From positions 210,001 through 242,000 of the forward strand of contig OZ246396.1 of NCBI GenBank assembly GCA_965230905.1: 32,000 nucleotides of DNA, in the 5' to 3' direction. Within the stretch, counting starts at the first letter, position 1. Every line of letters starts with the position of its first letter. The notes beneath the pieces are model-generated. The model made no database searches and was not told the DNA's origin. It saw only the letters and a list, made by a program, of their open reading frames with translations. This DNA is from Candidatus Saccharimonadota bacterium (GTDB lineage Bacteria > Patescibacteriota > Gracilibacteria > UBA1369 > 2-02-FULL-48-14). Positions 3,240 to 24,553 of the stretch are shown here, one piece after another. A program made the translations under genes and the position numbers.

Positions 3240-4307
3240 CTAGACCTCGATCGCCCCCTCTTTCACCCAATAAACCCGGGCTTGTTTAAGGCCTTTTACG
3301 TGGTCCAAGGAGGTGGTGGTGAGTATGCATTGGTAGTTTTGCAATAAATCGCCCAGTTTTTCTTGGCGGCGTTCGTCCAGCTCGGAAAAAACGTCGTCCA
3401 GTAGGAGCAGCGGCTTTTCCCCGGTCATTGCCTCCATGTACTTGAGTTCGGCGATTTTGAGCACCAAAACGGCGCTGCGCTGTTCCCCGCGTGAGCCGCA
3501 TTCGGCCAATTCTTTATCTTCTAAAAACAGGGTGAAATCGTCGCGGTGCGGGCCCAGCGAGGTCGATCCACTCTGAATATCGCTGCTGCGGTGCGCGATG
3601 AGGCGTTCTTCAAAGCGCTCTTTGGTGAGCCGGGCTTCCAGGGTGAGGGTTTTGCCCGTTCCGGCTATGGAATCGTAGTTTTCTTCGAGAGTTTTTTTGA
3701 GGAAGGCCATGAAGGGCTCGCGTTTTTCCCAAATCTTTAGAGCTTCCTCCACCAATCGCGCGTCCCAGAGGTCGAGTTCCCACTCCTGGGCACGGCCAAA
3801 TTGAATGCGCTTGAGCAAGGCATTGCGGTGGTTCAGAATTCGCTGATAATTGCTGAGCGCCTCCAAATACGCCTTGTCCACTTGGATGAGCAAACGGTCC
3901 AGGTACTGGCGGCGGGCCTGAGGGCTACCGGTGACCAAATCCAGATGATCTGGCGTGAAAAGCACCGCGCGCAGCGTGCCGATGAAGTTTTTGGGACTTG
4001 TCCACTTTGACTGCTTTTTTACTTTTTTGGTGTCCGGGTCGCGCTGCAAAAAAACCTCCAGGGAGGTTTCTTTGCCTTTGCGTTCGATGCCGGCGCGGAT
4101 TCGCCCGTGCGGACGGTCCCACTTCAGGGTTTCCATGGCTTTGCTGGCACGAAAAGACTTGCCCAGTGCCAGAAAGGCGATGCTTTCGAGGAGGTTCGTT
4201 TTACCCTGGGCGTTGAGACCCACCAGCGCCGTAACGGGTGCGTCCAGCTCGAGTTCCAACGCATCGTAATTGCGAAAATGTTCGAGCTTAAGCCATTTGA
4301 GTTTCAT
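3240..4307 (-). CDS. recF: DNA replication and repair protein RecF
   Basis: MKLKWLKLEHFRNYDALELELDAPVTALVGLNAQGKTNLLESIAFLALGKSFRA matches the RecF N-terminus and Walker A. The C-terminal LLLLDDVFSELD is the Walker B. Confidence 0.93.
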   Translation of the reverse strand: MKLKWLKLEHFRNYDALELELDAPVTALVGLNAQGKTNLLESIAFLALGKSFRASKAMETLKWDRPHGRIRAGIERKGKETSLEVFLQRDPDTKKVKKQSKWTSPKNFIGTLRAVLFTPDHLDLVTGSPQARRQYLDRLLIQVDKAYLEALSNYQRILNHRNALLKRIQFGRAQEWELDLWDARLVEEALKIWEKREPFMAFLKKTLEENYDSIAGTGKTLTLEARLTKERFEERLIAHRSSDIQSGSTSLGPHRDDFTLFLEDKELAECGSRGEQRSAVLVLKIAELKYMEAMTGEKPLLLLDDVFSELDERRQEKLGDLLQNYQCILTTTSLDHVKGLKQARVYWVKEGAIEV

Positions 4308-17619: not shown

Positions 17620-18228
17620 TCAGTTAAGCTCCACGGAGAACAAAATGTCGATCACGGCGTTTTCCACTTCGGCATTGCCTTTTTCCCAGCTGCCATAAAA
17701 GCGCAAAATGCGAGTCTCATCCACAAAAACCCACTGTTCCATCCCTACCGGATGAACCTTGGTTCCGTCATTCACCTCACCCTCGAGGATGAGCGTATAG
17801 GTGGTTCCAAACGAAGTGAATTCGAGTCCTTCGTGCAATAAGCTTGTTGCAGGGTCATTTTTAAAAAATTTTTCGTAGTAGTAATCGCTCGTTGTTTTAC
17901 GCTTTTCTGCTATCTCTTCAACCGTGGATCCCGTTCCGTCATACGAAAATCCCACCACATTAAATGCATTCAGTCCTTGGCCGCTTTCTTCGTAAATCAA
18001 GATTGAATCGTCGCCGGGAGCTTGCACCCAGCCTGCAGGCATGATGAGCGAGTAGCCTCCGCCATAAACTCGCGTGCCTTCCATAGCCGTTTCTTCAGCC
18101 ATGGGTTTCTCTTTCGTTTCACTGGTGCTGGTGGCGGGCTCGGCCGGTGGGGTGGAGGAACAGCCAGTGAACACTAGTAAAAATGCAAAAAACAAAGCTG
18201 ACAGAGCGTAGGATTTGTGGTGAGTCAT
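17620..18228 (-). CDS. Putative lipoprotein (~202 aa)
   Basis: From the ATG at 18228: MTHHKSYALSALFFAFLLVFTGCSSTPP, with lipobox LVFTGC. The remainder is a soluble beta-rich domain of unknown family. Confidence 0.65.
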   Translation of the reverse strand: MTHHKSYALSALFFAFLLVFTGCSSTPPAEPATSTSETKEKPMAEETAMEGTRVYGGGYSLIMPAGWVQAPGDDSILIYEESGQGLNAFNVVGFSYDGTGSTVEEIAEKRKTTSDYYYEKFFKNDPATSLLHEGLEFTSFGTTYTLILEGEVNDGTKVHPVGMEQWVFVDETRILRFYGSWEKGNAEVENAVIDILFSVELN

Positions 18229-18341
18229 TGAATGGGGGTTGCGTGTGAATAGATTGTAGCGGTGTTGTTGGATTTGTAACAACGCGAAATAACGGGTTAA
18301 AAGGTGAAAAATCGCCGGCGGGTGGTTCCTAAAGGGGAGAT

Positions 18342-18584
18342 GTGGATTTAACCGTGAAAGCTTTAACAACCATGAATCATTACGAACAAGCTATTTTAGT
18401 AACCAATGATGGAGATTTTCTAGCCTTACTTAACTACCTCGATTCAAAAAATAAATTGAAAGTTGTTTTATCCACACATAAATGGGATTGCTCCTTATTG
18501 ATCAAAAGAGCCTATCCCGAAAAAGTCCAATTTTTAGAAAAGGTAAAAGATAGATTGAATTACGAAGGAAGCCGCTCTTCTTAA
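18342..18584 (+). pseudogene. 5'-truncated NYN/LabA-like (PIN-like) nuclease remnant
   Basis: VDLTVKALTTMNHYEQAILVTNDGDFLALLNYLDSKNKLKVVLS matches only the C-terminal half of NYN domains (..aiLvSgDgDF.pl...l...gk.V.v). An in-frame stop at 18330-18332 leaves no room for the N-terminal catalytic half. Confidence 0.5.
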
Positions 18585-18630
18585 GGACGGAACCTTAAAA
18601 CGGACGGCTTCATCTAAATACGTTGTGATT

Positions 18631-19503
18631 CTATTGTTTTGTCGTCTTAAAGTCAACTTCTGGCAGCGTATCCCACAGCAGATTCCAAATCGAGTCGTGC
18701 ATTTGGTAAATGTAGTCGTTTTCAATGATCACGCCAATGAGGTCGTTTTCCACGTAGGTGAGGTAAGAAACCTTGCCGTCGTAAATATTCATCTCGATGG
18801 TGAAGGGGTAGAGCTGGCTGTTGATCCACTTGTACCCGGCGTGCGATTTGGGCGAGTAGCCTTGGCTCTCATAAATGGAGCGGGCGAAGGGAGTGTCCAG
18901 GAGGAGGCTGCGTTTTTTGAGAGTGGTTTTTTCACGGGCTGCCACGTACTCGTCATTGATGTCCTTCACGTGCTTGAACATGGAATCGATATTGGCGAAG
19001 TCTTTAAGATTGGTTTTTGAATTGAGCGTATCAAAAAGCACCTGATGCACGCCTGCTTTTCCCCTGTAAAATTGCACGTTTGGAATGTGACGATTGGTCT
19101 GCATCATTCCCAGGAGTTGCGGCATCACCGTCTCCAGATCGTTTGTGAGTTTTTGGAATTCATAATTCTTCTTACGTTTTTGCACTTCCAGCAATTCGAG
19201 GAGTTCTTCTGGATGAACGGCGGAATAGAGATAGGTGTTGCGATCACGAGTTTTTAAAACCAGATTCTGCTTTTCCAGACGTTCCAGGATGTGCTGAATG
19301 GTCGTGCGAGGTTGTGCCAACAGATAAGCCAGTGTGCTGGCTCGCGTGGCACCGTATTTGAGGAGACGCAGGTAAGCGGTGATTTCTTTGTCATCCAGGC
19401 CGAATTGTTGAAGCGTTGGGACGAGCACTTTTGAGTGAAATAGTGGCTGCTGCCCAAGTGTGGTGGGCAGATTTATAGTAGTTTTTAACCTGTGAAAAGT
19501 CAA
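18631..19503 (-). CDS. TrmB-family transcriptional regulator
   Basis: It has an N-terminal winged HTH, LQQFGLDDKEITAYLRLLKYGATRASTLAYLLAQPRTTIQHILERLEKQNLV, plus a TrmB-like C-terminal domain. The start is uncertain: TTG at 19503, or a GTG about 60 nt downstream. Confidence 0.8.
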   Translation of the reverse strand: MTFHRLKTTINLPTTLGQQPLFHSKVLVPTLQQFGLDDKEITAYLRLLKYGATRASTLAYLLAQPRTTIQHILERLEKQNLVLKTRDRNTYLYSAVHPEELLELLEVQKRKKNYEFQKLTNDLETVMPQLLGMMQTNRHIPNVQFYRGKAGVHQVLFDTLNSKTNLKDFANIDSMFKHVKDINDEYVAAREKTTLKKRSLLLDTPFARSIYESQGYSPKSHAGYKWINSQLYPFTIEMNIYDGKVSYLTYVENDLIGVIIENDYIYQMHDSIWNLLWDTLPEVDFKTTKQ

Positions 19504-19582
19504 GCTATGAACAATTTGGTCCTAGATACTTGATGAGTTATTGACGTTGTGACAGAATTATTTTCTTGTTTATATCCAAACT

Positions 19583-20857
19583 ATGAACTCTTCCACTGAC
19601 AATCCAGAATCTACCACTCTAGAAGAAACCATCGGGCAACTGAGTACCCTTTTGGATGGGCTGAAGGCTTTTGGCATTACGAGAAAAGTGATCGCAGAGC
19701 GTGCTCAAGTTACTCCAAGCTACGTGTCCCAATTTGCTCCCAAACGGGGCGCCGCCACCAGTAAAGTACCTTCTCATGAGGTGGTGGTGAAGCTGGCCAT
19801 CGCCTGCCATGACTTATTGAGAGACCGACACGTTGACCCAGCTGGCTTATCTGAACCTGTAAAAACGGCTTTGCTGGTACTCAGTGAGAGATACGTCCCA
19901 ACCGGCACATTTGCCGCAAGTTCCTACGAACCGGGCCAGCCTTTGCCCTACCCTCACTCCAACTATGTTGCGAGGGAGCTTGACCGACTTTTTGAGGGGA
20001 TCCTCCCCATGCCAGGCCGACTGAATCAACCTGGAGCTTGGATGCTTTCGGGTACCCATGCGTCTGGGAAACGCTCTCTGATGACAAAATTTTTGCACAA
20101 GTTCAAAGCATTTGGAGATGTATGTAAGATCAGTATCTACCCGGGAACCACACCCATGAGTGTGTTAGAACGCCTTTCTTCGGACTCGGAGCTCGCACTG
20201 CCTACCGATGGCAGTGGTTTTGACCGACAGTTTGCTCAACTGGTCAGTCGAATAACGGATAGGAACCCTAAACCTATTCTCTTTGACTTAAATGGGTTCA
20301 ACGCCGGCCCACTTGAAGTGACTCGGGGCGTTGCCGTTGGCGTACAAAGGCTCTTGCAAGGTGACGCGCGCGCTCGTCTCCACAACTCAAGTAGCATCAT
20401 TTTGACTCCGAGTTTTGCTCACTTTGAGCACTTGAATTCAGCGGCCATGGAAGCGGAACGAGAAAAACTCGGGTTTCTCCATTTTCTATCCCACTCGGGT
20501 GTACGCAGTGTGGGAACCACCTGGTTTAGCGTTGAAGAACTCGGAAAATTGGCGCAAACGCTCGGCGTTGATGCTTCCGCAATTGATCGTACTTATCGGC
20601 TCACGCACGGACAACCCCTGCTGAGTCACGCTGCTCTTTTGTGTGCCAAAGAAGGCCGTTTGACTCTCCAGGAAATCGCCAAGCAGTCTGCCGTTCAACG
20701 CTACCGAGCAGTGGTTGGGAATGCGTGGGACTTATGTAAAGACTCACCTGATTCCGGCTTAGTGAGTGCTCTTGGTTTTCATCCCGACCAAGCTGGCTAT
20801 CCTCGTGGCAAAGACGGCGAGGTAGCAGGACTTCATAAACAATGGTTTAACCGCTAA
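19583..20857 (+). CDS. HTH-fused P-loop NTPase (AAA_16/Arch_ATPase/STAND-like) with a non-canonical Walker A
   Basis: The N-terminal XRE-like HTH is FGITRKVIAERAQVTPSYVSQF. A P-loop follows (WMLSGTHASGKRSLMTKF), then candidate Walker B KPILFDLNG, sensor-like SSIILTPS, and LTHGQPLLSHAALL, which resembles the STAND G(L/x)PL helical motif. Confidence 0.7.
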   Translation: MNSSTDNPESTTLEETIGQLSTLLDGLKAFGITRKVIAERAQVTPSYVSQFAPKRGAATSKVPSHEVVVKLAIACHDLLRDRHVDPAGLSEPVKTALLVLSERYVPTGTFAASSYEPGQPLPYPHSNYVARELDRLFEGILPMPGRLNQPGAWMLSGTHASGKRSLMTKFLHKFKAFGDVCKISIYPGTTPMSVLERLSSDSELALPTDGSGFDRQFAQLVSRITDRNPKPILFDLNGFNAGPLEVTRGVAVGVQRLLQGDARARLHNSSSIILTPSFAHFEHLNSAAMEAEREKLGFLHFLSHSGVRSVGTTWFSVEELGKLAQTLGVDASAIDRTYRLTHGQPLLSHAALLCAKEGRLTLQEIAKQSAVQRYRAVVGNAWDLCKDSPDSGLVSALGFHPDQAGYPRGKDGEVAGLHKQWFNR

Positions 20858-20886
20858 CTAATCTACCACATTAACTCCTCTACCTT

Positions 20887-22074
20887 ATGAACCTCTCTAA
20901 AGGACAATCCAGTTTCCTCAGAATGGCTAGCCGACGCGGAGTCGACCCTGGTGATTTTGGCGACTATGTTCCGGAAATAAAATCCCAGGAAAAAACGCCT
21001 GATACTACCAAACCAACCATTGCTTATCTTCATACGGGTGGAACCTTAATGATGGTTCCGAGCACTGGAGATCAAGGTGCGTTGTCCTTTGAGGGTGCTA
21101 CTGATATCAATGCCGCTCTCGATATATGCAATACAGTCGCTCACGTCCGACGCCGGTACAATATTGTGGGGATTCATCTGGCTAACTTGGATTCCATTGA
21201 AGTGGGGCCAGCCCACTGGTCTGCGATGGCAGCAGCTATTCAAACCATTTATGACAAAGTGCAGGGAGTGGTGATCGGACACGGAACTCACACCGCTGAG
21301 TACTCCGCTGCGGCCTTGGCTTATGCCTTGAGAAATCCTTCTAAGCCCATCGTATTCACCGCATCCCAAATCCCTCTGATTGGTTACCCGGGTAGTGATG
21401 CGATTGGAAATTTAACAGGTGCCATGGAGATTGCTGCCAACGGCGATTTGGCCGAGGTGGTTGCTTATGCCAATGGTGTGATCCATCGAGGAACGCGCAT
21501 GAGAAAAGTGAACGACAGTCGTTTGCAGGTTTTCGATTCTCCCATCACTGGCCCGCTGGGTCACTTTGGAGCAGGAGGAATTGAGTTGGTTCCCGGCGCA
21601 CGCAAACGTGCCGGCAAAATGGACCATGACCTTAAATATTTACCTCGCTTTGCCAAACACGTTTCCACCATCAAATACACACCTGGAATGGACAGGGAAA
21701 TGATTGGAGAAAACATTGCCCAGGCTGGAAATGTGGGAATTATTTTTGAGACTCCTGGCTCCGGGGCCATTCCATCTAGCTATGTACCTATCCTTTCTGC
21801 TCACGCTGAAAAAGGGTTTGCTGTGATGCTAACCTCAGCCGCTACTCAATCCGGGATCAGCACAGGAATGGTTTTACATGACGAGGCCGCCATTCAAGCC
21901 TATAAATCAGGGGTACGAACGGCAGGAGACATGACGACGGGGGCTGCTTCAGTGAAACTCATGTCCGTGTTGGGAAACTCTCCTAATGCCTCTTTGGATG
22001 AGGTCAATCATGAAATGGTTGGGAAAAGTTACTCGGGCGAAATAAGTGTGAAAAAAGGAACGGAGGATTATTAA
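20887..22074 (+). CDS. L-asparaginase type I / GatD-family protein with an atypical HGTHT motif
   Basis: It aligns by eye to E. coli AnsA: TIAYLHTGGTLMM (TGGT), VVIGHGTHTAEYSAAALAYAL (HGTDT in AnsA), KPIVFTASQIPL (VTGSQIPL) and HRGTRMRKVNDSRLQVFDSP. Confidence 0.8.
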   Translation: MNLSKGQSSFLRMASRRGVDPGDFGDYVPEIKSQEKTPDTTKPTIAYLHTGGTLMMVPSTGDQGALSFEGATDINAALDICNTVAHVRRRYNIVGIHLANLDSIEVGPAHWSAMAAAIQTIYDKVQGVVIGHGTHTAEYSAAALAYALRNPSKPIVFTASQIPLIGYPGSDAIGNLTGAMEIAANGDLAEVVAYANGVIHRGTRMRKVNDSRLQVFDSPITGPLGHFGAGGIELVPGARKRAGKMDHDLKYLPRFAKHVSTIKYTPGMDREMIGENIAQAGNVGIIFETPGSGAIPSSYVPILSAHAEKGFAVMLTSAATQSGISTGMVLHDEAAIQAYKSGVRTAGDMTTGAASVKLMSVLGNSPNASLDEVNHEMVGKSYSGEISVKKGTEDY

Positions 22075-22080
22075 ATATTT

Positions 22081-23091
22081 ATGGCTTTGAAGTCAAAATT
22101 CACGGCGGAAACAATGAACTCTCAGAGTTTATTCGATCTTGTCCAAGCGGAGGCAGAATTGGCACAACTCACTGAGGAGTGGAGAAGAGCCAAGACCTCG
22201 GTAAATTCGGGACGCGATAAAATAGACAAATTGAACGCGATTGCGACTTTCATAGGGAAAACGGGCGAACTCTTAAAAAGAACGGTTCCTACAACTAGTG
22301 ATGGAGGTAAGTCAATGAAGTATTTACTCCAAAAACTGCATCCAGCCATTCGTATGGATTGCATAGGCCAAGTTTTTGCGGGGTGTGAATATGGGCTGGC
22401 CACCTCTTCCCAGAGTCCGTTTACTTCTGGGAACCCGATTTCCCTCGCTCGAAGAACTTTTGATAAGCATGTTTTGTCGGATGATTACCGTCGTCAGTGT
22501 GATGAAATGCAGGAAGATTTAGCCCATGTTAATGGTGCCCGACTGGCCTTTGATTTGGAGGGGGTTTTGGTTTCGACCTCCTATCGCAAACGTGGCTTCA
22601 AAGCACCCACTATCAATCTTCTGCGTCCCGGCGCGAATGAAATACTGGAGGCTCTCCACCAAAACAGATCAAATCAGACCTGGGTGTGGACTTCTGCTTC
22701 CGACGGACTAGTGACTGAGTCCATGAGTGATGGGGGTTTATCCTTGCCTGCTTCAGCAGATATCGTTGGCAGAGAAATGACGGCAAAAGCGATTGATGAA
22801 GCCACTTTAATGGTCGAGGGAAATTGGACAGATTTTTGGATACTGGACGGTCGCTGTAAAATTCCTCGTTTTTTCCCCGGCGGAGATTTAGACGTTTTAG
22901 TAGACGATAAGGTCTCTGAACACTTGGAGGGCATTGCGGAAGTTTTGGGAGAAGTTGGACGCGCTGAGGAGGCGAAAAAAATGATCCAAATCAACTCTTT
23001 TGCGCCTCGAACGGCCCAAGCGTTTAGAAGTGCTCACCTGGACACGGAGCTATTTAAACTAGCTAAAAAGTTGAGAGAAAGATTTTCGTAG
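22081..23091 (+). CDS. NIF/FCP1-like HAD-fold protein with a degenerate DxDxT motif and a coiled-coil N-terminus
   Basis: LAFDLEGVLVSTS corresponds to LVLDLDETLVHS. INLLRPGANEILEALHQN...TWVWTSAS corresponds to v.kRPgv.eFL..l...fe.vifTAs. DVLVDDKV corresponds to viivDnsp. The start lies 6 nt after the asparaginase-like gene. Confidence 0.55.
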   Translation: MALKSKFTAETMNSQSLFDLVQAEAELAQLTEEWRRAKTSVNSGRDKIDKLNAIATFIGKTGELLKRTVPTTSDGGKSMKYLLQKLHPAIRMDCIGQVFAGCEYGLATSSQSPFTSGNPISLARRTFDKHVLSDDYRRQCDEMQEDLAHVNGARLAFDLEGVLVSTSYRKRGFKAPTINLLRPGANEILEALHQNRSNQTWVWTSASDGLVTESMSDGGLSLPASADIVGREMTAKAIDEATLMVEGNWTDFWILDGRCKIPRFFPGGDLDVLVDDKVSEHLEGIAEVLGEVGRAEEAKKMIQINSFAPRTAQAFRSAHLDTELFKLAKKLRERFS

Positions 23092-23925
23092 CAAGTACTC
23101 CGTCCCTCTCGGCCCCCAAAGCTTCCGTCCCCTTTCATCCAAAACAGGCAGCGGGTACAAATTGCTGGTTTGGCGGCCCACGGTGAAGGGGGTGCCGTAG
23201 TTGCCGCAGAGGAATTCTTCGTCGTTTTCACCGGAGTTGGCTTGGTCGCCGATCACAAGGATGTCGCTGAGCGGAATGTCGAGGTGTTTGGCCCAGCGCG
23301 CGACCGCTTTTCCCTTTCCGCTTTCTTTGGGAATTATAAGGTTGCCCACGCCGGAATCCTGAATCAGCAGGTCTTTTTGGATGCCCATTTTTGCAAAGAG
23401 ATGGTGGAGTTTTTTTGCGGTGCGGCTGGAAACGAGGCGCACGAGCCGTGGAAAAAGGTAGAGCCAATCGTGAAAACGGATCACCATGGAATGCTCTTTA
23501 ATGATGAATTGGGCCGTCCAACCGAGTTTGTCTTTGATGAAGGCTTCGAGAGTGTCTTGCGTGATGACGGAGTTCGGCCAGGTGACATCTAGGAATTTTT
23601 CGTAGTCTTTTTTGCGGGGATTCCAGGTGAAGCCGGCGCCGCCGTTTTCAGATAAAATATGCCAGCGTTTTCGTTGCACGTCTTCGTCGGGGGCCTTTTT
23701 GAAAATGTGCGCGAGCTTACCCTGAATGTGCTCCATGGAGCGGCCGGTGCAGAAAGCCAGAGGAACCTCGCGCGGGAGACTGTTGAGTACTTCGCAGAGA
23801 GTTTCGGGAATGGTCCAGCGTGAAAGCTCGGTGAGCGTGCCGTCTATATCGAAAGCAACGGCTTTGTAGTGGCGTTTGAGCGCTGCGTGGGTGGCTTTTT
23901 CTTGAGCGGGCGAGAGGAAGTTCAT
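23059..23925 (-). CDS. HAD-IIB (Cof-type) sugar-phosphate phosphatase family hydrolase
   Basis: KAVAFDIDGTLTE (DxDGT), LAFCTGRS and ILVIGDQANSGENDEEF (GDxxND) are present. Its 3' end overlaps the convergent gene's 3' end by 33 nt. Confidence 0.8.
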   Translation of the reverse strand: MNFLSPAQEKATHAALKRHYKAVAFDIDGTLTELSRWTIPETLCEVLNSLPREVPLAFCTGRSMEHIQGKLAHIFKKAPDEDVQRKRWHILSENGGAGFTWNPRKKDYEKFLDVTWPNSVITQDTLEAFIKDKLGWTAQFIIKEHSMVIRFHDWLYLFPRLVRLVSSRTAKKLHHLFAKMGIQKDLLIQDSGVGNLIIPKESGKGKAVARWAKHLDIPLSDILVIGDQANSGENDEEFLCGNYGTPFTVGRQTSNLYPLPVLDERGRKLWGPRGTEYLLRKSFSQLFS

Positions 23926-23957: not shown

Positions 23958-24317
23958 TTATAGCTTAGAGCTATCAAAGTTTTTATTCCTGAGATCTTCT
24001 CTCAAAATTGTTAAGTATGCGTGTAAAGTTTTTCTGAAAATGGGGTTTTTAATTGTGATATTTTGGCCGATGGCATCCTTTTTTGAACGTAAGAATAGAA
24101 AAAAGAGATCTTTAGTTTGAAGATTAACTATAAAAACTGCCCTTCTAGGGCCTATCACCGTAGTTATATAGAGTTTTCTTAGTTCTGAATTTCCGGGTAA
24201 ATCACTACCTTTGATAATTTTGTAAATTCCTTTAGAAACAGCTTTTAAAAGCCACTCCTTTTCTCCTTGACCAATCGCCTCTTTCATCAGAAGCGTGCGA
24301 GGGAAAATGATCCTCAT
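23958..24317 (-). CDS. Putative RelE/HigB(Gp49)-like toxin
   Basis: The ATG at 24317 overlaps the upstream stop as ATGA. RKLYITTVIGPRRAVFIVNLQTKDLFFLFLRSKKD resembles the RelE/HigB core (R...g..R.i......li.l.f.KK). The assignment is tentative. Confidence 0.5.
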   Translation of the reverse strand: MRIIFPRTLLMKEAIGQGEKEWLLKAVSKGIYKIIKGSDLPGNSELRKLYITTVIGPRRAVFIVNLQTKDLFFLFLRSKKDAIGQNITIKNPIFRKTLHAYLTILREDLRNKNFDSSKL

Positions 24318-24553
24318 GCGACAGATTTGTTCCATTCATCCATTACGCTATCCATCAATTCTTGAGTTTCCTGGTCCACTTCAATAGTACTTACTTGAGT
24401 CACCTCAGGCATCCGTGAACCAATCTGAATTTTACCATCCGCATAGTCATTGAGAAGGATACGGACAATCGCACTCACTGAGATTTTTTCTCTTTTTGCA
24501 CGAGTGGCCGCCCTATCACGGATTTCTTTATCTATAGAAATAGTTGTATTCAT
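24314..24553 (-). CDS. Ribbon-helix-helix (CopG/RelB-like) antitoxin
   Basis: MNTTISIDKEIRDRAATRAKREKISVSAIVRILLNDY is an RHH fold. The protein is 79 aa and sits immediately upstream of, and coupled to, the toxin-like ORF. Confidence 0.7.
   Translation of the reverse strand: MNTTISIDKEIRDRAATRAKREKISVSAIVRILLNDYADGKIQIGSRMPEVTQVSTIEVDQETQELMDSVMDEWNKSVA

Follow-up and report, generated by a model that had tools for sequence, protein, structure and literature searches.

A Patescibacteria asparaginase clade with a variant triad and the recurrent pairing of asparaginases with HTH-STAND NTPases

Do three adjacent genes encoding a STAND-like NTPase, an asparaginase relative and a protein resembling a HAD phosphatase form a single system? 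The question is raised by a stretch of 32,000 nucleotides (nt) of contig OZ246396.1 (assembly GCA_965230905.1, positions 210,001 to 242,000 of the forward strand), called the window here for the whole of the DNA analysed. The source is a groundwater ultra-small bacterium and the three genes are co-oriented open reading frames (ORFs) on the plus strand, as first described: gene 1 (19583-20857, 424 amino acids (aa)), gene 2 (20887-22074, 395 aa) and gene 3 (22081-23091, 336 aa). An earlier note, made from the sequence alone, had proposed a three-gene operon, divergent from a TrmB-family regulator, in which all three products have altered catalytic motifs. The layout was confirmed, with gaps of 29 nt between genes 1 and 2 and 6 nt between genes 2 and 3, and with a divergent gene matching Pfam TrmB (7e-14). 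The trio as a unit was not supported. The pairing of a STAND NTPase with an asparaginase was supported, and its role would be regulatory or defensive.

The stop-free runs of 336-424 codons greatly exceed chance expectation in DNA of about 50% GC. No terminator-like sites were found on the plus strand between genes 1-3, where consensus scans stayed at background level, and a promoter and terminator scan of the locus gave counts at the level of shuffled sequence and was uninformative. No mobile-element repeats were found flanking gene 1 or gene 3. The same DNA was met again in one set of ENA assemblies, where a contig of 1.3 Mb and two short ones ('Hain_H51' sample names) carry it.

Gene 2 is the best defined of the three. 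It matched both Pfam domains of the L-asparaginase/glutaminase superfamily (Asparaginase_N, 4e-40, 137.8 bits against a cut-off of 22.5; Asparaginase_C, 5e-14, 52.7 bits against 34.6). Its best match in the PDB was GatD 1zq1 (3e-31), and its alignment to type I asparaginase and GatD structures spans residues 43-387. The earlier reading of gene 2 as an asparaginase/GatD relative with HGTHT in place of HGTDT was borne out by Pfam and by these alignments: HGTHT (aa 132-136; 21280-21294, plus strand) lies residue by residue over the HGTDT of three solved structures, GatD 1zq1 and two archaeal asparaginases (5ot0 and 1wls), with H135 at the position of the triad Asp. The TGGT loop is kept (HTGGT, aa 49-53; G51, G52 and T53 are invariant in the clade described below and T50 nearly so). 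Since Thr134 and Lys207 (K207) are also kept but the Asp of the Thr-Lys-Asp triad is His135, gene 2 is a superfamily member with a variant triad.

The variant is not private to this genome. Among 38 aligned members of its clade (45-85% identity), 37 have His at position 135 and the remaining one has Asn; TGGT, K207, S160/Q161 and D171 are invariant or nearly so. In the HGTxT-type motifs of outgroup asparaginase loci, taken from metagenomes and genomes, the same position held Asp 67 times and His not once. A metagenome scan with the asparaginase alignment returned nearly exclusively generic proteins (about 30% identity) plus one clade member, and it was used only as outgroup. Because His135 is near-universal in the clade and never occurs in the outgroup motifs, it is best read as a selected clade character and not as decay. 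Gene 2 thus belongs to a Patescibacteria-specific asparaginase clade with a predicted Thr-Lys-His triad. The clade comprises about 44 proteins of 46-100% identity, beyond which E-values drop from 1e-99 to 1e-27. Its members also keep an N-terminal extension of about 40 aa (in gene 2 at 20902-20985, plus strand; consensus GQxxFLxxAxxRGVxxxLFGxxVPEIKF), which ordinary type I asparaginases do not have; the PDB and Pfam alignments begin only at residue ~43.

The protein of gene 2 is named 'Patescibacteria group bacterium' at NCBI and its relatives are labelled Peribacteria. L-asparaginase is among the few amino-acid-degrading enzymes in Peribacteria genomes (PMC4736985). Between the window and its nearest relative (L006 in our numbering of compared loci), the asparaginases are 85% identical and the flanking MutS proteins 69%; relative to L010/L011 the figures are 53% and 70%, which is the same MutS distance. 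A metagenome-assembled genome (MAG) labelled Kerfeldbacteria carries a copy 52% identical to gene 2. The incongruence between asparaginase and flanking-gene identities suggests horizontal movement, and a module of TrmB and asparaginase appears to travel among Patescibacteria lineages. One locus (L009, 2465-3049) has, directly downstream of the clade asparaginase, a 194-aa single-domain asparaginase-N-like protein with TGGT kept and HGTYR for HGTDT, a second and different non-canonical asparaginase relative.

To establish what accompanies gene 2, 19 distinct clade loci were compared, the window included. A divergent TrmB-family gene lies directly upstream of the asparaginase in 12 of them and one gene away in two more, and the TrmB-adjacent loci include MAGs labelled Kerfeldbacteria and Saccharibacteria. 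In the window this gene (18631-19503, minus strand) has an N-terminal winged-helix domain scoring 51.8 bits against a cut-off of 25.6, and its scores against equivalog models were far under their cut-offs. The conserved neighbour of gene 2 is this divergent TrmB regulator, not gene 1 or gene 3. The TrmB gene is bracketed by the two copies of an imperfect direct repeat of 26 nt (73% identity; 18620-18645 and 19544-19569), the second of them inside the 79-nt region between the TrmB gene and gene 1 (19504-19582); it could be an operator or chance.

In Peribacteria the asparaginase sits in a syntenic backbone of S18-SSB-S6, TrmB, asparaginase, HAD-IIB and MutS genes. The HAD-IIB (Cof-type) hydrolase of the window (23059-23925, minus strand; TIGR01484, 2e-13) shares 33 nt with the 3' end of gene 3 and is part of this backbone; its orthologues are 49-54% identical in L001, L010, L011 and L103, and a partial one at the contig end of L107 is 56% identical over 108 aa. 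In the nearest relative (L001/L006) the slot of gene 1 holds an unrelated 179-aa ORF, gene 3 is absent, and the asparaginase overlaps the HAD-IIB gene by 4 nt. Unrelated ORFans also fill the slots beside the asparaginase elsewhere (223 aa in L014, 244 aa in L103, 224 aa in L114). Since relatives hold unrelated ORFans or nothing in those slots, the trio does not co-occur. The idea that such ORFans (those of L001, L014 and L103) are decayed copies of gene 1 or gene 3 was unsupported by BLAST and by the family hidden Markov model (HMM).

Some neighbours are restricted to a few loci. In the lineage of L004, L005 and L017 the divergent neighbour is a glutamyl-tRNA synthetase (GluRS) gene (L004, 4355-5836) instead of TrmB, the sole hint of a tRNA-related role for the clade. 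AAA_14/DUF4143 ATPase genes stand beside or near the asparaginase in L102 (3487-4659), L013 (9235-10413) and L003 (12919-13233), and two upstream ORFs of L102 look AbiEi/AbiEii-like by eye, with no Pfam match on record.

Gene 1 was harder to place. Alone, it gave sub-threshold Pfam matches to HTH_3 (2e-4, 21.7 bits against a cut-off of 23) and AAA_35 (0.086), and no match in the PDB or NCBIfam. A word-indexed search returned nothing, the protein itself included, and an exhaustive HMMER search was used instead; it found only 7 representatives of the family among 1.84 billion proteins. Common to the seven aligned sequences are an XRE-like helix-turn-helix (HTH), a P-loop and a Walker B strand, and the GQP motif is invariant among them. 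AAA_35 was matched by six of the seven members (best 1.2e-14; AAA_16, 3e-6) and HTH_3 by five, and hhalign of the family alignment against a canonical AAA_35 protein gave a probability of 97% (E 1e-10). The AlphaFold2 (AF2) model built from the family alignment had a pLDDT of 81, with HTH helices at residues 34-40 and 45-49 and helical domains at 317-356 and 362-422; its Foldseek matches were NLR resistosomes, Cdc6/ORC, SSO1545, MuB, MalT (8bob) and Avs3. The HTH and STAND-like NTPase that the earlier note had seen in gene 1 are thus weak in the single protein; once family matches, hhalign and AF2/Foldseek are taken together, the NTPase is solid and the HTH probable. In gene 1 a probable XRE-type HTH is followed by an AAA_35/STAND-like NTPase, then by a helical domain with the GxP motif and, at the C terminus, by a further helical domain that is winged-helix-like.

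The motifs can be located on the plus strand. The HTH (aa 31-51, GITRKVIAERAQVTPSYVSQF; 19673-19735) includes the family-invariant residues T44, S49 and Q50. The STAND-type GxP motif, THGQPLL (aa 341-347; 20603-20623), has invariant G343, Q344 and P345 and falls in the AAA_35 match region; after the NTPase core, it is accompanied by the further helical domain. No C-terminal sensor or repeat domain was found, and the protein ends at residue 424. The Walker A Ser/Thr coordinates Mg; in gene 1 this motif (SGTHASGKRS, aa 156-165; 20048-20077) has R164 where all six homologues have GK[ST]. The Walker B region (PILFDLNGFN, aa 231-240; 20273-20302) has N237 where the six have D or E. The family alignment thus confirmed the altered Walker motifs and the GQP motif of the earlier reading. 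Both losses are unique to gene 1 within the family, the motifs being canonical in all six homologues, and with Ser/Thr missing from Walker A and Asp from Walker B the protein would at best bind nucleotide without hydrolysing it. The claim that all three genes have altered catalytic motifs mixes unlike things: the His of gene 2 is conserved across its clade, the changes in gene 1 are its own, and the motifs of gene 3 are unassignable.

Is the neighbourhood of genes 1 and 2 more than local? The gene 1 family adjoins a clade asparaginase in three Peribacteria loci with differing gene orders: the window, L102 and L018. In L102 a full-length homologue (P0065; 31% identity to gene 1, E 2e-50) lies 5 nt downstream of the clade asparaginase (75% identical), the order opposite to that of the window. 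In L018 (271-2219) a TrmB gene is followed by an asparaginase gene without its first ~146 residues (no TGGT, no HGTHT) and by a gene 1 homologue with a canonical Walker A (GSSYSGKSS) and an in-frame TAG within the HTH; the locus represents a pair in decay or else a chimeric assembly.

Four distant members of the gene 1 family (L108-L111) are on contigs of 53-67% GC, and two of these, from unrelated bacteria, carry a fuller operon (L110, 5733-10930, 64% GC; L111, 6001-13738, 53% GC). Both have the gene order HTH-AAA_35 NTPase, AAA_35-Asparaginase_N-Asparaginase_C fusion (763 and 730 aa, respectively) and a further asparaginase of 505 or 507 aa with a C-terminal extension of about 140 aa. The asparaginase domains of the fusions are complete, with canonical TGGT and HGTDT. 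Between the HTH-NTPase and fusion genes there is an overlap of 4 nt in L110 and a gap of 5 nt in L111. The gene after the HTH-NTPase overlaps it by 1 nt in both L108 and L109, and the L108 gene is homologous to the NTPase half of the fusion (E 5e-30) before the contig ends. The HMM of the gene 1 family matches the NTPase domains of the fusions at 2.6e-7 to 3e-4, so that the HTH-NTPase and the fusion NTPase are paralogues. A full-length NTPase-asparaginase fusion was not found on plasmids by tblastn. The link between gene 1 and gene 2 is therefore supported as real, in that the family tracks asparaginases in independent lineages. The co-occurrence that the earlier note had made a test of its reading was found for genes 1 and 2, in independent lineages and as fusions, and failed for gene 3.

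Further genes stand in these loci. L111 also encodes a protein of 462 aa that contains an Asp/Glu-racemase domain, and an asparaginase truncated to 138 aa (HGTNT). The latter is 41% identical to gene 2 over 83 aa and was considered as a sign that the full system includes the variant clade; this was rejected because the clade HMM scored it at 73 bits, against 82-91 for ordinary asparaginases. L110 is flanked by a GatA-like amidase gene and a PLD-domain gene with weak DrmC-model matches.

Canonical AAA_35 genes on Chlorohelix and Nostoc plasmids likewise come as overlapping tandem pairs (L113, 4550-10479; L112, 5403-7671), the second gene bearing WD40 repeats (1493 aa) or CHASE2. As other AAA_35 pairs bear WD40 or CHASE2 there, the asparaginase fills the variable C-terminal slot of a two-NTPase system.

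Gene 3 was a different matter. In a search of 5.8e9 proteins it had one match, a 99% identical copy; phmmer found no relative in any fetched locus, and there was none on viral contigs. The full-length protein had no match in Pfam, NCBIfam, the PDB or PHROGs. Its N-terminal half is helical, and its C-terminal half has the HAD-like strings AFDLEGVLV, VWTSAS and LVDDKV. In the C-terminal 160 aa the only Pfam match was NIF (E=0.16, 12.1 bits against a cut-off of 21.8), motif I reads D-L-E-G-V and not the DxDx(T/V) with both Asp, hhalign against the neighbouring HAD-IIB family aligned motif I only (AFDLEGVLV/AFDIDGTLT, probability 1%), and the single-sequence AF2 model was unusable (pLDDT 37). The NIF/FCP1 assignment of the earlier note found no statistical support in these searches. 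The public gene call starts gene 3 at 22114 (Met12; 325 aa), which widens the gap after gene 2 from 6 to 39 nt. The start contexts of gene 1 (19578-19591) and of Met12 in gene 3 (22109-22122) are near-identical (AAAC[T/A]ATGAACTCT, Met-Asn-Ser).

A 3.6-kb low-coverage contig of the population (L105) differs from the window at only three positions, all C>A and all within gene 3 (window 22409 and 22442-22443; L105 3457 and 3490-3491); one of the changes is a premature stop at codon 121. In P0063, gene 3 carries two additional amino-acid substitutions, G44V and D49Y. These variants reflect either relaxed selection or sequencing damage. The system does not include gene 3 as a conserved component; the gene is most sensibly regarded as an ORFan of this strain that may be decaying, with the HAD idea as a lead only.

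The reading that we favour, by a modest lean, is a composite one, in which a core of TrmB and His-variant asparaginase has gained an asparaginase-tied HTH-STAND add-on, degenerate in this genome, and an inserted, unrelated orphan. Gene 2 would be a working L-asparaginase/glutaminase-type amidohydrolase with Thr-Lys-His as its second catalytic triad, probably controlled by the divergently transcribed TrmB-like regulator, and this two-gene module would be the conserved core. Gene 1 would be an HTH-bearing AAA_35/STAND nucleotide switch from a family coupled specifically to asparaginase-family enzymes, and may regulate asparaginase activity or expression. In the full system of the unrelated bacteria, an HTH-NTPase would be translationally coupled to a paralogous NTPase-asparaginase fusion and followed by a further asparaginase. 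Judging from this domain architecture and from the dimer requirement of asparaginases, the two related NTPase modules may co-oligomerise upon nucleotide binding and thereby connect the binding of DNA by the HTH with the coming together of asparaginase domains. The active sites of asparaginases exist only where two subunits meet in an intimate dimer, and for that reason oligomerisation could switch the enzyme on. In Peribacteria the system would be reduced to an HTH-NTPase and a stand-alone asparaginase, and gene 1 of this genome is most likely an HTH regulator or partner of the asparaginase operon that is locked or works without nucleotide, or else it is decaying. Gene 3 would be a strain-specific insertion between the asparaginase and HAD-IIB genes, with signs of relaxed constraint.

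Several observations weigh against this composite reading. The clade asparaginase has no gene 1 homologue beside it in 15 of the 18 other loci and so does not need one. In L107 (2115-5061) TrmB is followed by a gene 1 homologue (P0067, 430 aa), then by a 60-aa ORF and HAD-IIB. Asparaginase is absent there and the NTPase gene occupies its usual position, so that the adjacency in Peribacteria could partly reflect a shared variable slot. The Peribacteria loci are interrelated and not fully independent observations. The clade asparaginase is 27-29% identical to the system-associated asparaginases, no closer than to ordinary ones. With 8 loci the gene 1 family is tiny, and two loci from outside the candidate phyla radiation (CPR) end before any asparaginase domain could appear. 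Finally, co-oligomerisation of the NTPase modules is predicted from architecture, and the catalytic competence of the Thr-Lys-His triad is putative.

Three other explanations were weighed. The least probable, and a very improbable one, is that gene 2 serves a tRNA-dependent amidotransferase as its glutaminase subunit and is a bacterial GatD. GatD 1zq1 is its best PDB match, the scores of the NCBIfam GatD models come close to that of the type I asparaginase model (165 and 170 bits, respectively), and GluRS is the divergent neighbour in one lineage, but only in that one. Gene 2 also falls far under every NCBIfam cut-off, whether for GatD (164.8 against 310 and 158.9 against 324), for type I asparaginase (TIGR00519, 169.6 against 260.5) or for AnsA (PRK09461, 121 against 376), it is missing the N-terminal domain of GatD, its match beginning at GatD profile position 52-65, and no GatE-like gene was seen in any of the 19 clade neighbourhoods. 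Housekeeping GatD or AnsA orthology, which the earlier note had named as grounds for abandoning its reading, is thus not what the scores indicate. Accidental adjacency is somewhat better placed, although still unlikely: the interval between TrmB and HAD-IIB would gather unrelated ORFs, with an inactivated gene 1 and gene 3 as passengers. The ORFans in the slots of L001, L014, L103 and L114, the gene 1 homologue without asparaginase in L107, the degenerate Walker motifs of gene 1, the in-frame TAG of its L018 homologue and the orphan status and stop-codon variant of gene 3 all suit that view. It leaves unexplained that the distant family members (53-67% GC) all precede an AAA_35 NTPase and that both complete cases have the NTPase-asparaginase fusion followed by another asparaginase; chance adjacency to a family occurring about once per genome is very unlikely in several independent lineages.

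The strongest competitor, which we regard as a real if minority possibility, is a minimal NLR-like conflict system for anti-phage defence or abortive infection, in which the STAND protein senses an invader and oligomerises and the asparaginase is the effector, depleting asparagine or glutamine or deamidating a target until growth arrests. Put more specifically, and with the same reserve, nucleotide-driven oligomerisation in an undescribed NLR-like system may build active asparaginase dimers, with Asn/Gln depletion as the immune or growth-arrest output. The STAND fold with its Foldseek matches to NLR resistosomes and Avs3, the tandem arrangement of NTPase genes, of which the second has an exchangeable C-terminal domain, the extreme rarity and patchy distribution, and the frequent rearrangement, pseudogenisation (L018) and loss are what such a system might show. 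The neighbours also fit: a possible RHH-type toxin-antitoxin pair and the NYN remnant in the window, and elsewhere the AbiE-like ORFs (L102), AAA_14/DUF4143 genes (L102, L013, L003), the PLD gene with its DrmC-model matches (L110) and a helicase gene (L010); dimer-dependent asparaginase sites would suit activation by induced proximity. Against it, PADLOC-DB 2.0 gave no match for genes 1-3, nor PADLOC for the fusion and asparaginase genes of L110 and L111, and the gene 1 homologues had only marginal matches with E above 2e-3. No relatives of the asparaginase clade or of gene 3 were found on viral contigs, and full-text searches for asparaginase with STAND NTPases or with anti-phage effectors found no paper on such an association or tying asparaginase to defence. 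WD40 and CHASE2 in the other AAA_35 pairs are sensor-type domains, so that a role as amino-acid sensor would suit the asparaginase domain equally well; the HTH is a typical output of regulators and not an immune effector; and gene 1 has a degenerate NTPase site in this genome. The asparaginase of the clade occurs widely without the NTPase and is paired with a metabolic-type regulator, and in Peribacteria genomes asparaginase has been read as ordinary amino-acid catabolism (PMC4736985). Of the earlier suggestion of a STAND NTPase with an enzymatic partner in defence, the pairing of genes 1 and 2 stands, since it recurs and is fused in two bacteria, and the defence role is a minority possibility. 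The composite reading remains the one that we place first, ahead of the conflict system, accidental adjacency and the GatD role, in that order.

The remaining features of the window only partly bear out the accessory context suggested for the locus. The NYN-domain remnant (80 aa; 18342-18584, plus strand) matched only NYN profile positions 79-124, and the syntenic site of L001/L006 has an intact NYN gene of 207 aa; with it, the extra HAD gene (HAD-IIB) was substantiated. A 249-aa minus-strand ORF (17620-18369), which partly overlaps the NYN remnant, has no counterpart in the nearest relative, and its N-terminal region looks like a lipoprotein signal by eye (…LLVFTGCSS). At 23958-24553 two genes overlap by 22 nt, one RHH/DUF6364-like and encoding 79 aa, the other encoding 125 aa; the RHH assignment is weak (RHH_1, 0.007; DUF6364, 9e-5), and the 125-aa ORF (23958-24335), first called RelE, had no match in Pfam, PHROGs or the PDB, which leaves RelE unsupported. 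The nearest relative does not have this pair and carries SLH/CAP-domain and 160-aa genes instead.

What would the coupling mean? STAND/NLR-type switches control nucleases, proteases, TIR/SIR2 NADases and transcription, and we know of no description of an asparaginase-family enzyme as the hard-wired partner, here fused in cis, of such a switch. The STAND-asparaginase coupling looks new, being absent from PADLOC and from the literature found, and the Thr-Lys-His asparaginase clade looks new as well. If the coupling is functional, it would be a new regulation of amino-acid amide catabolism or a new depletion-type effector; should the NLR-like reading be true, STAND systems would gain a new effector chemistry, present even in ultra-small CPR bacteria. 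The Patescibacteria-wide clade with His for Asp offers a natural experiment on the mechanism of a medically important family, in reduced genomes where asparaginase is one of few amino-acid-degrading enzymes. The 'three-gene operon' itself should stay out of system catalogues.

Compared with known systems, gene 2 is like type I L-asparaginase (AnsA, Pyrococcus PhA/TkA) and archaeal GatD in its two-domain fold, Asparaginase_N and Asparaginase_C, and has in common with them the TGGT loop, Lys207, the Ser/Gln substrate-binding pair and a GSD..NL motif; its C-terminal 'YAGEI' is common to GatD and the archaeal enzymes. It differs from all of these in the clade-wide His for the triad Asp, in the N-terminal extension and in scoring below every NCBIfam cut-off, and from GatD also in having no GatD N-terminal domain. 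Stretches of gene 3 look like HAD motifs I, II and IV of the NIF/FCP1/SCP phosphatases (PF03031), with a spacing that, judged against SCP1, would suit a NIF-type HAD; gene 3 differs from them in its sub-threshold match, in DxE in place of DxD, and in having no fold model and no homologues.

The AAA_35 (PF14516)/AAA_16 NTPases, found as tandem pairs in Cyanobacteria and Chloroflexota, resemble the gene 1 family in the P-loop, the GQPLL domain and the C-terminal helical domain, and their tandem pairs resemble the full asparaginase system in having two paralogous NTPase genes with overlapping stop and start. We found no literature mentioning PF14516 or discussing AAA_35. Unlike those pairs, the gene 1 family bears an N-terminal XRE-type HTH and the second gene of its full system bears an asparaginase and not WD40 or CHASE2; the Peribacteria version has no second NTPase, and gene 1 itself is without the Ser/Thr of Walker A and the Asp of Walker B.

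NLR-like defence proteins (Avs, bNACHT) have in common with gene 1 the STAND core, a fold similarity to Avs3 and plant NLR resistosomes, and association with an enzymatic domain, whereas gene 1 has no PADLOC match, no C-terminal sensor repeats and an HTH as output domain; to our knowledge, no known defence system uses asparaginase. The STAND regulators (MalT, GutR, AfsR/SARP-type) also join a DNA-binding domain to a STAND switch, and in GutR and AfsR this domain is N-terminal. Gene 1 differs from them in having no C-terminal TPR or sensor repeats and in an HTH of XRE type, not LuxR or SARP, and the likeness is one of fold and architecture (the MalT match in Foldseek), not of sequence-level membership. 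AnsR belongs to the XRE-type HTH family and is reportedly the HTH repressor of the Bacillus subtilis ansAB (asparaginase/aspartase) operon. It is small, stand-alone and without an NTPase, and its likeness to gene 1 is by description only; as an XRE-type HTH protein encoded, like gene 1, beside an asparaginase gene, it is nevertheless a precedent for HTH control of asparaginase.

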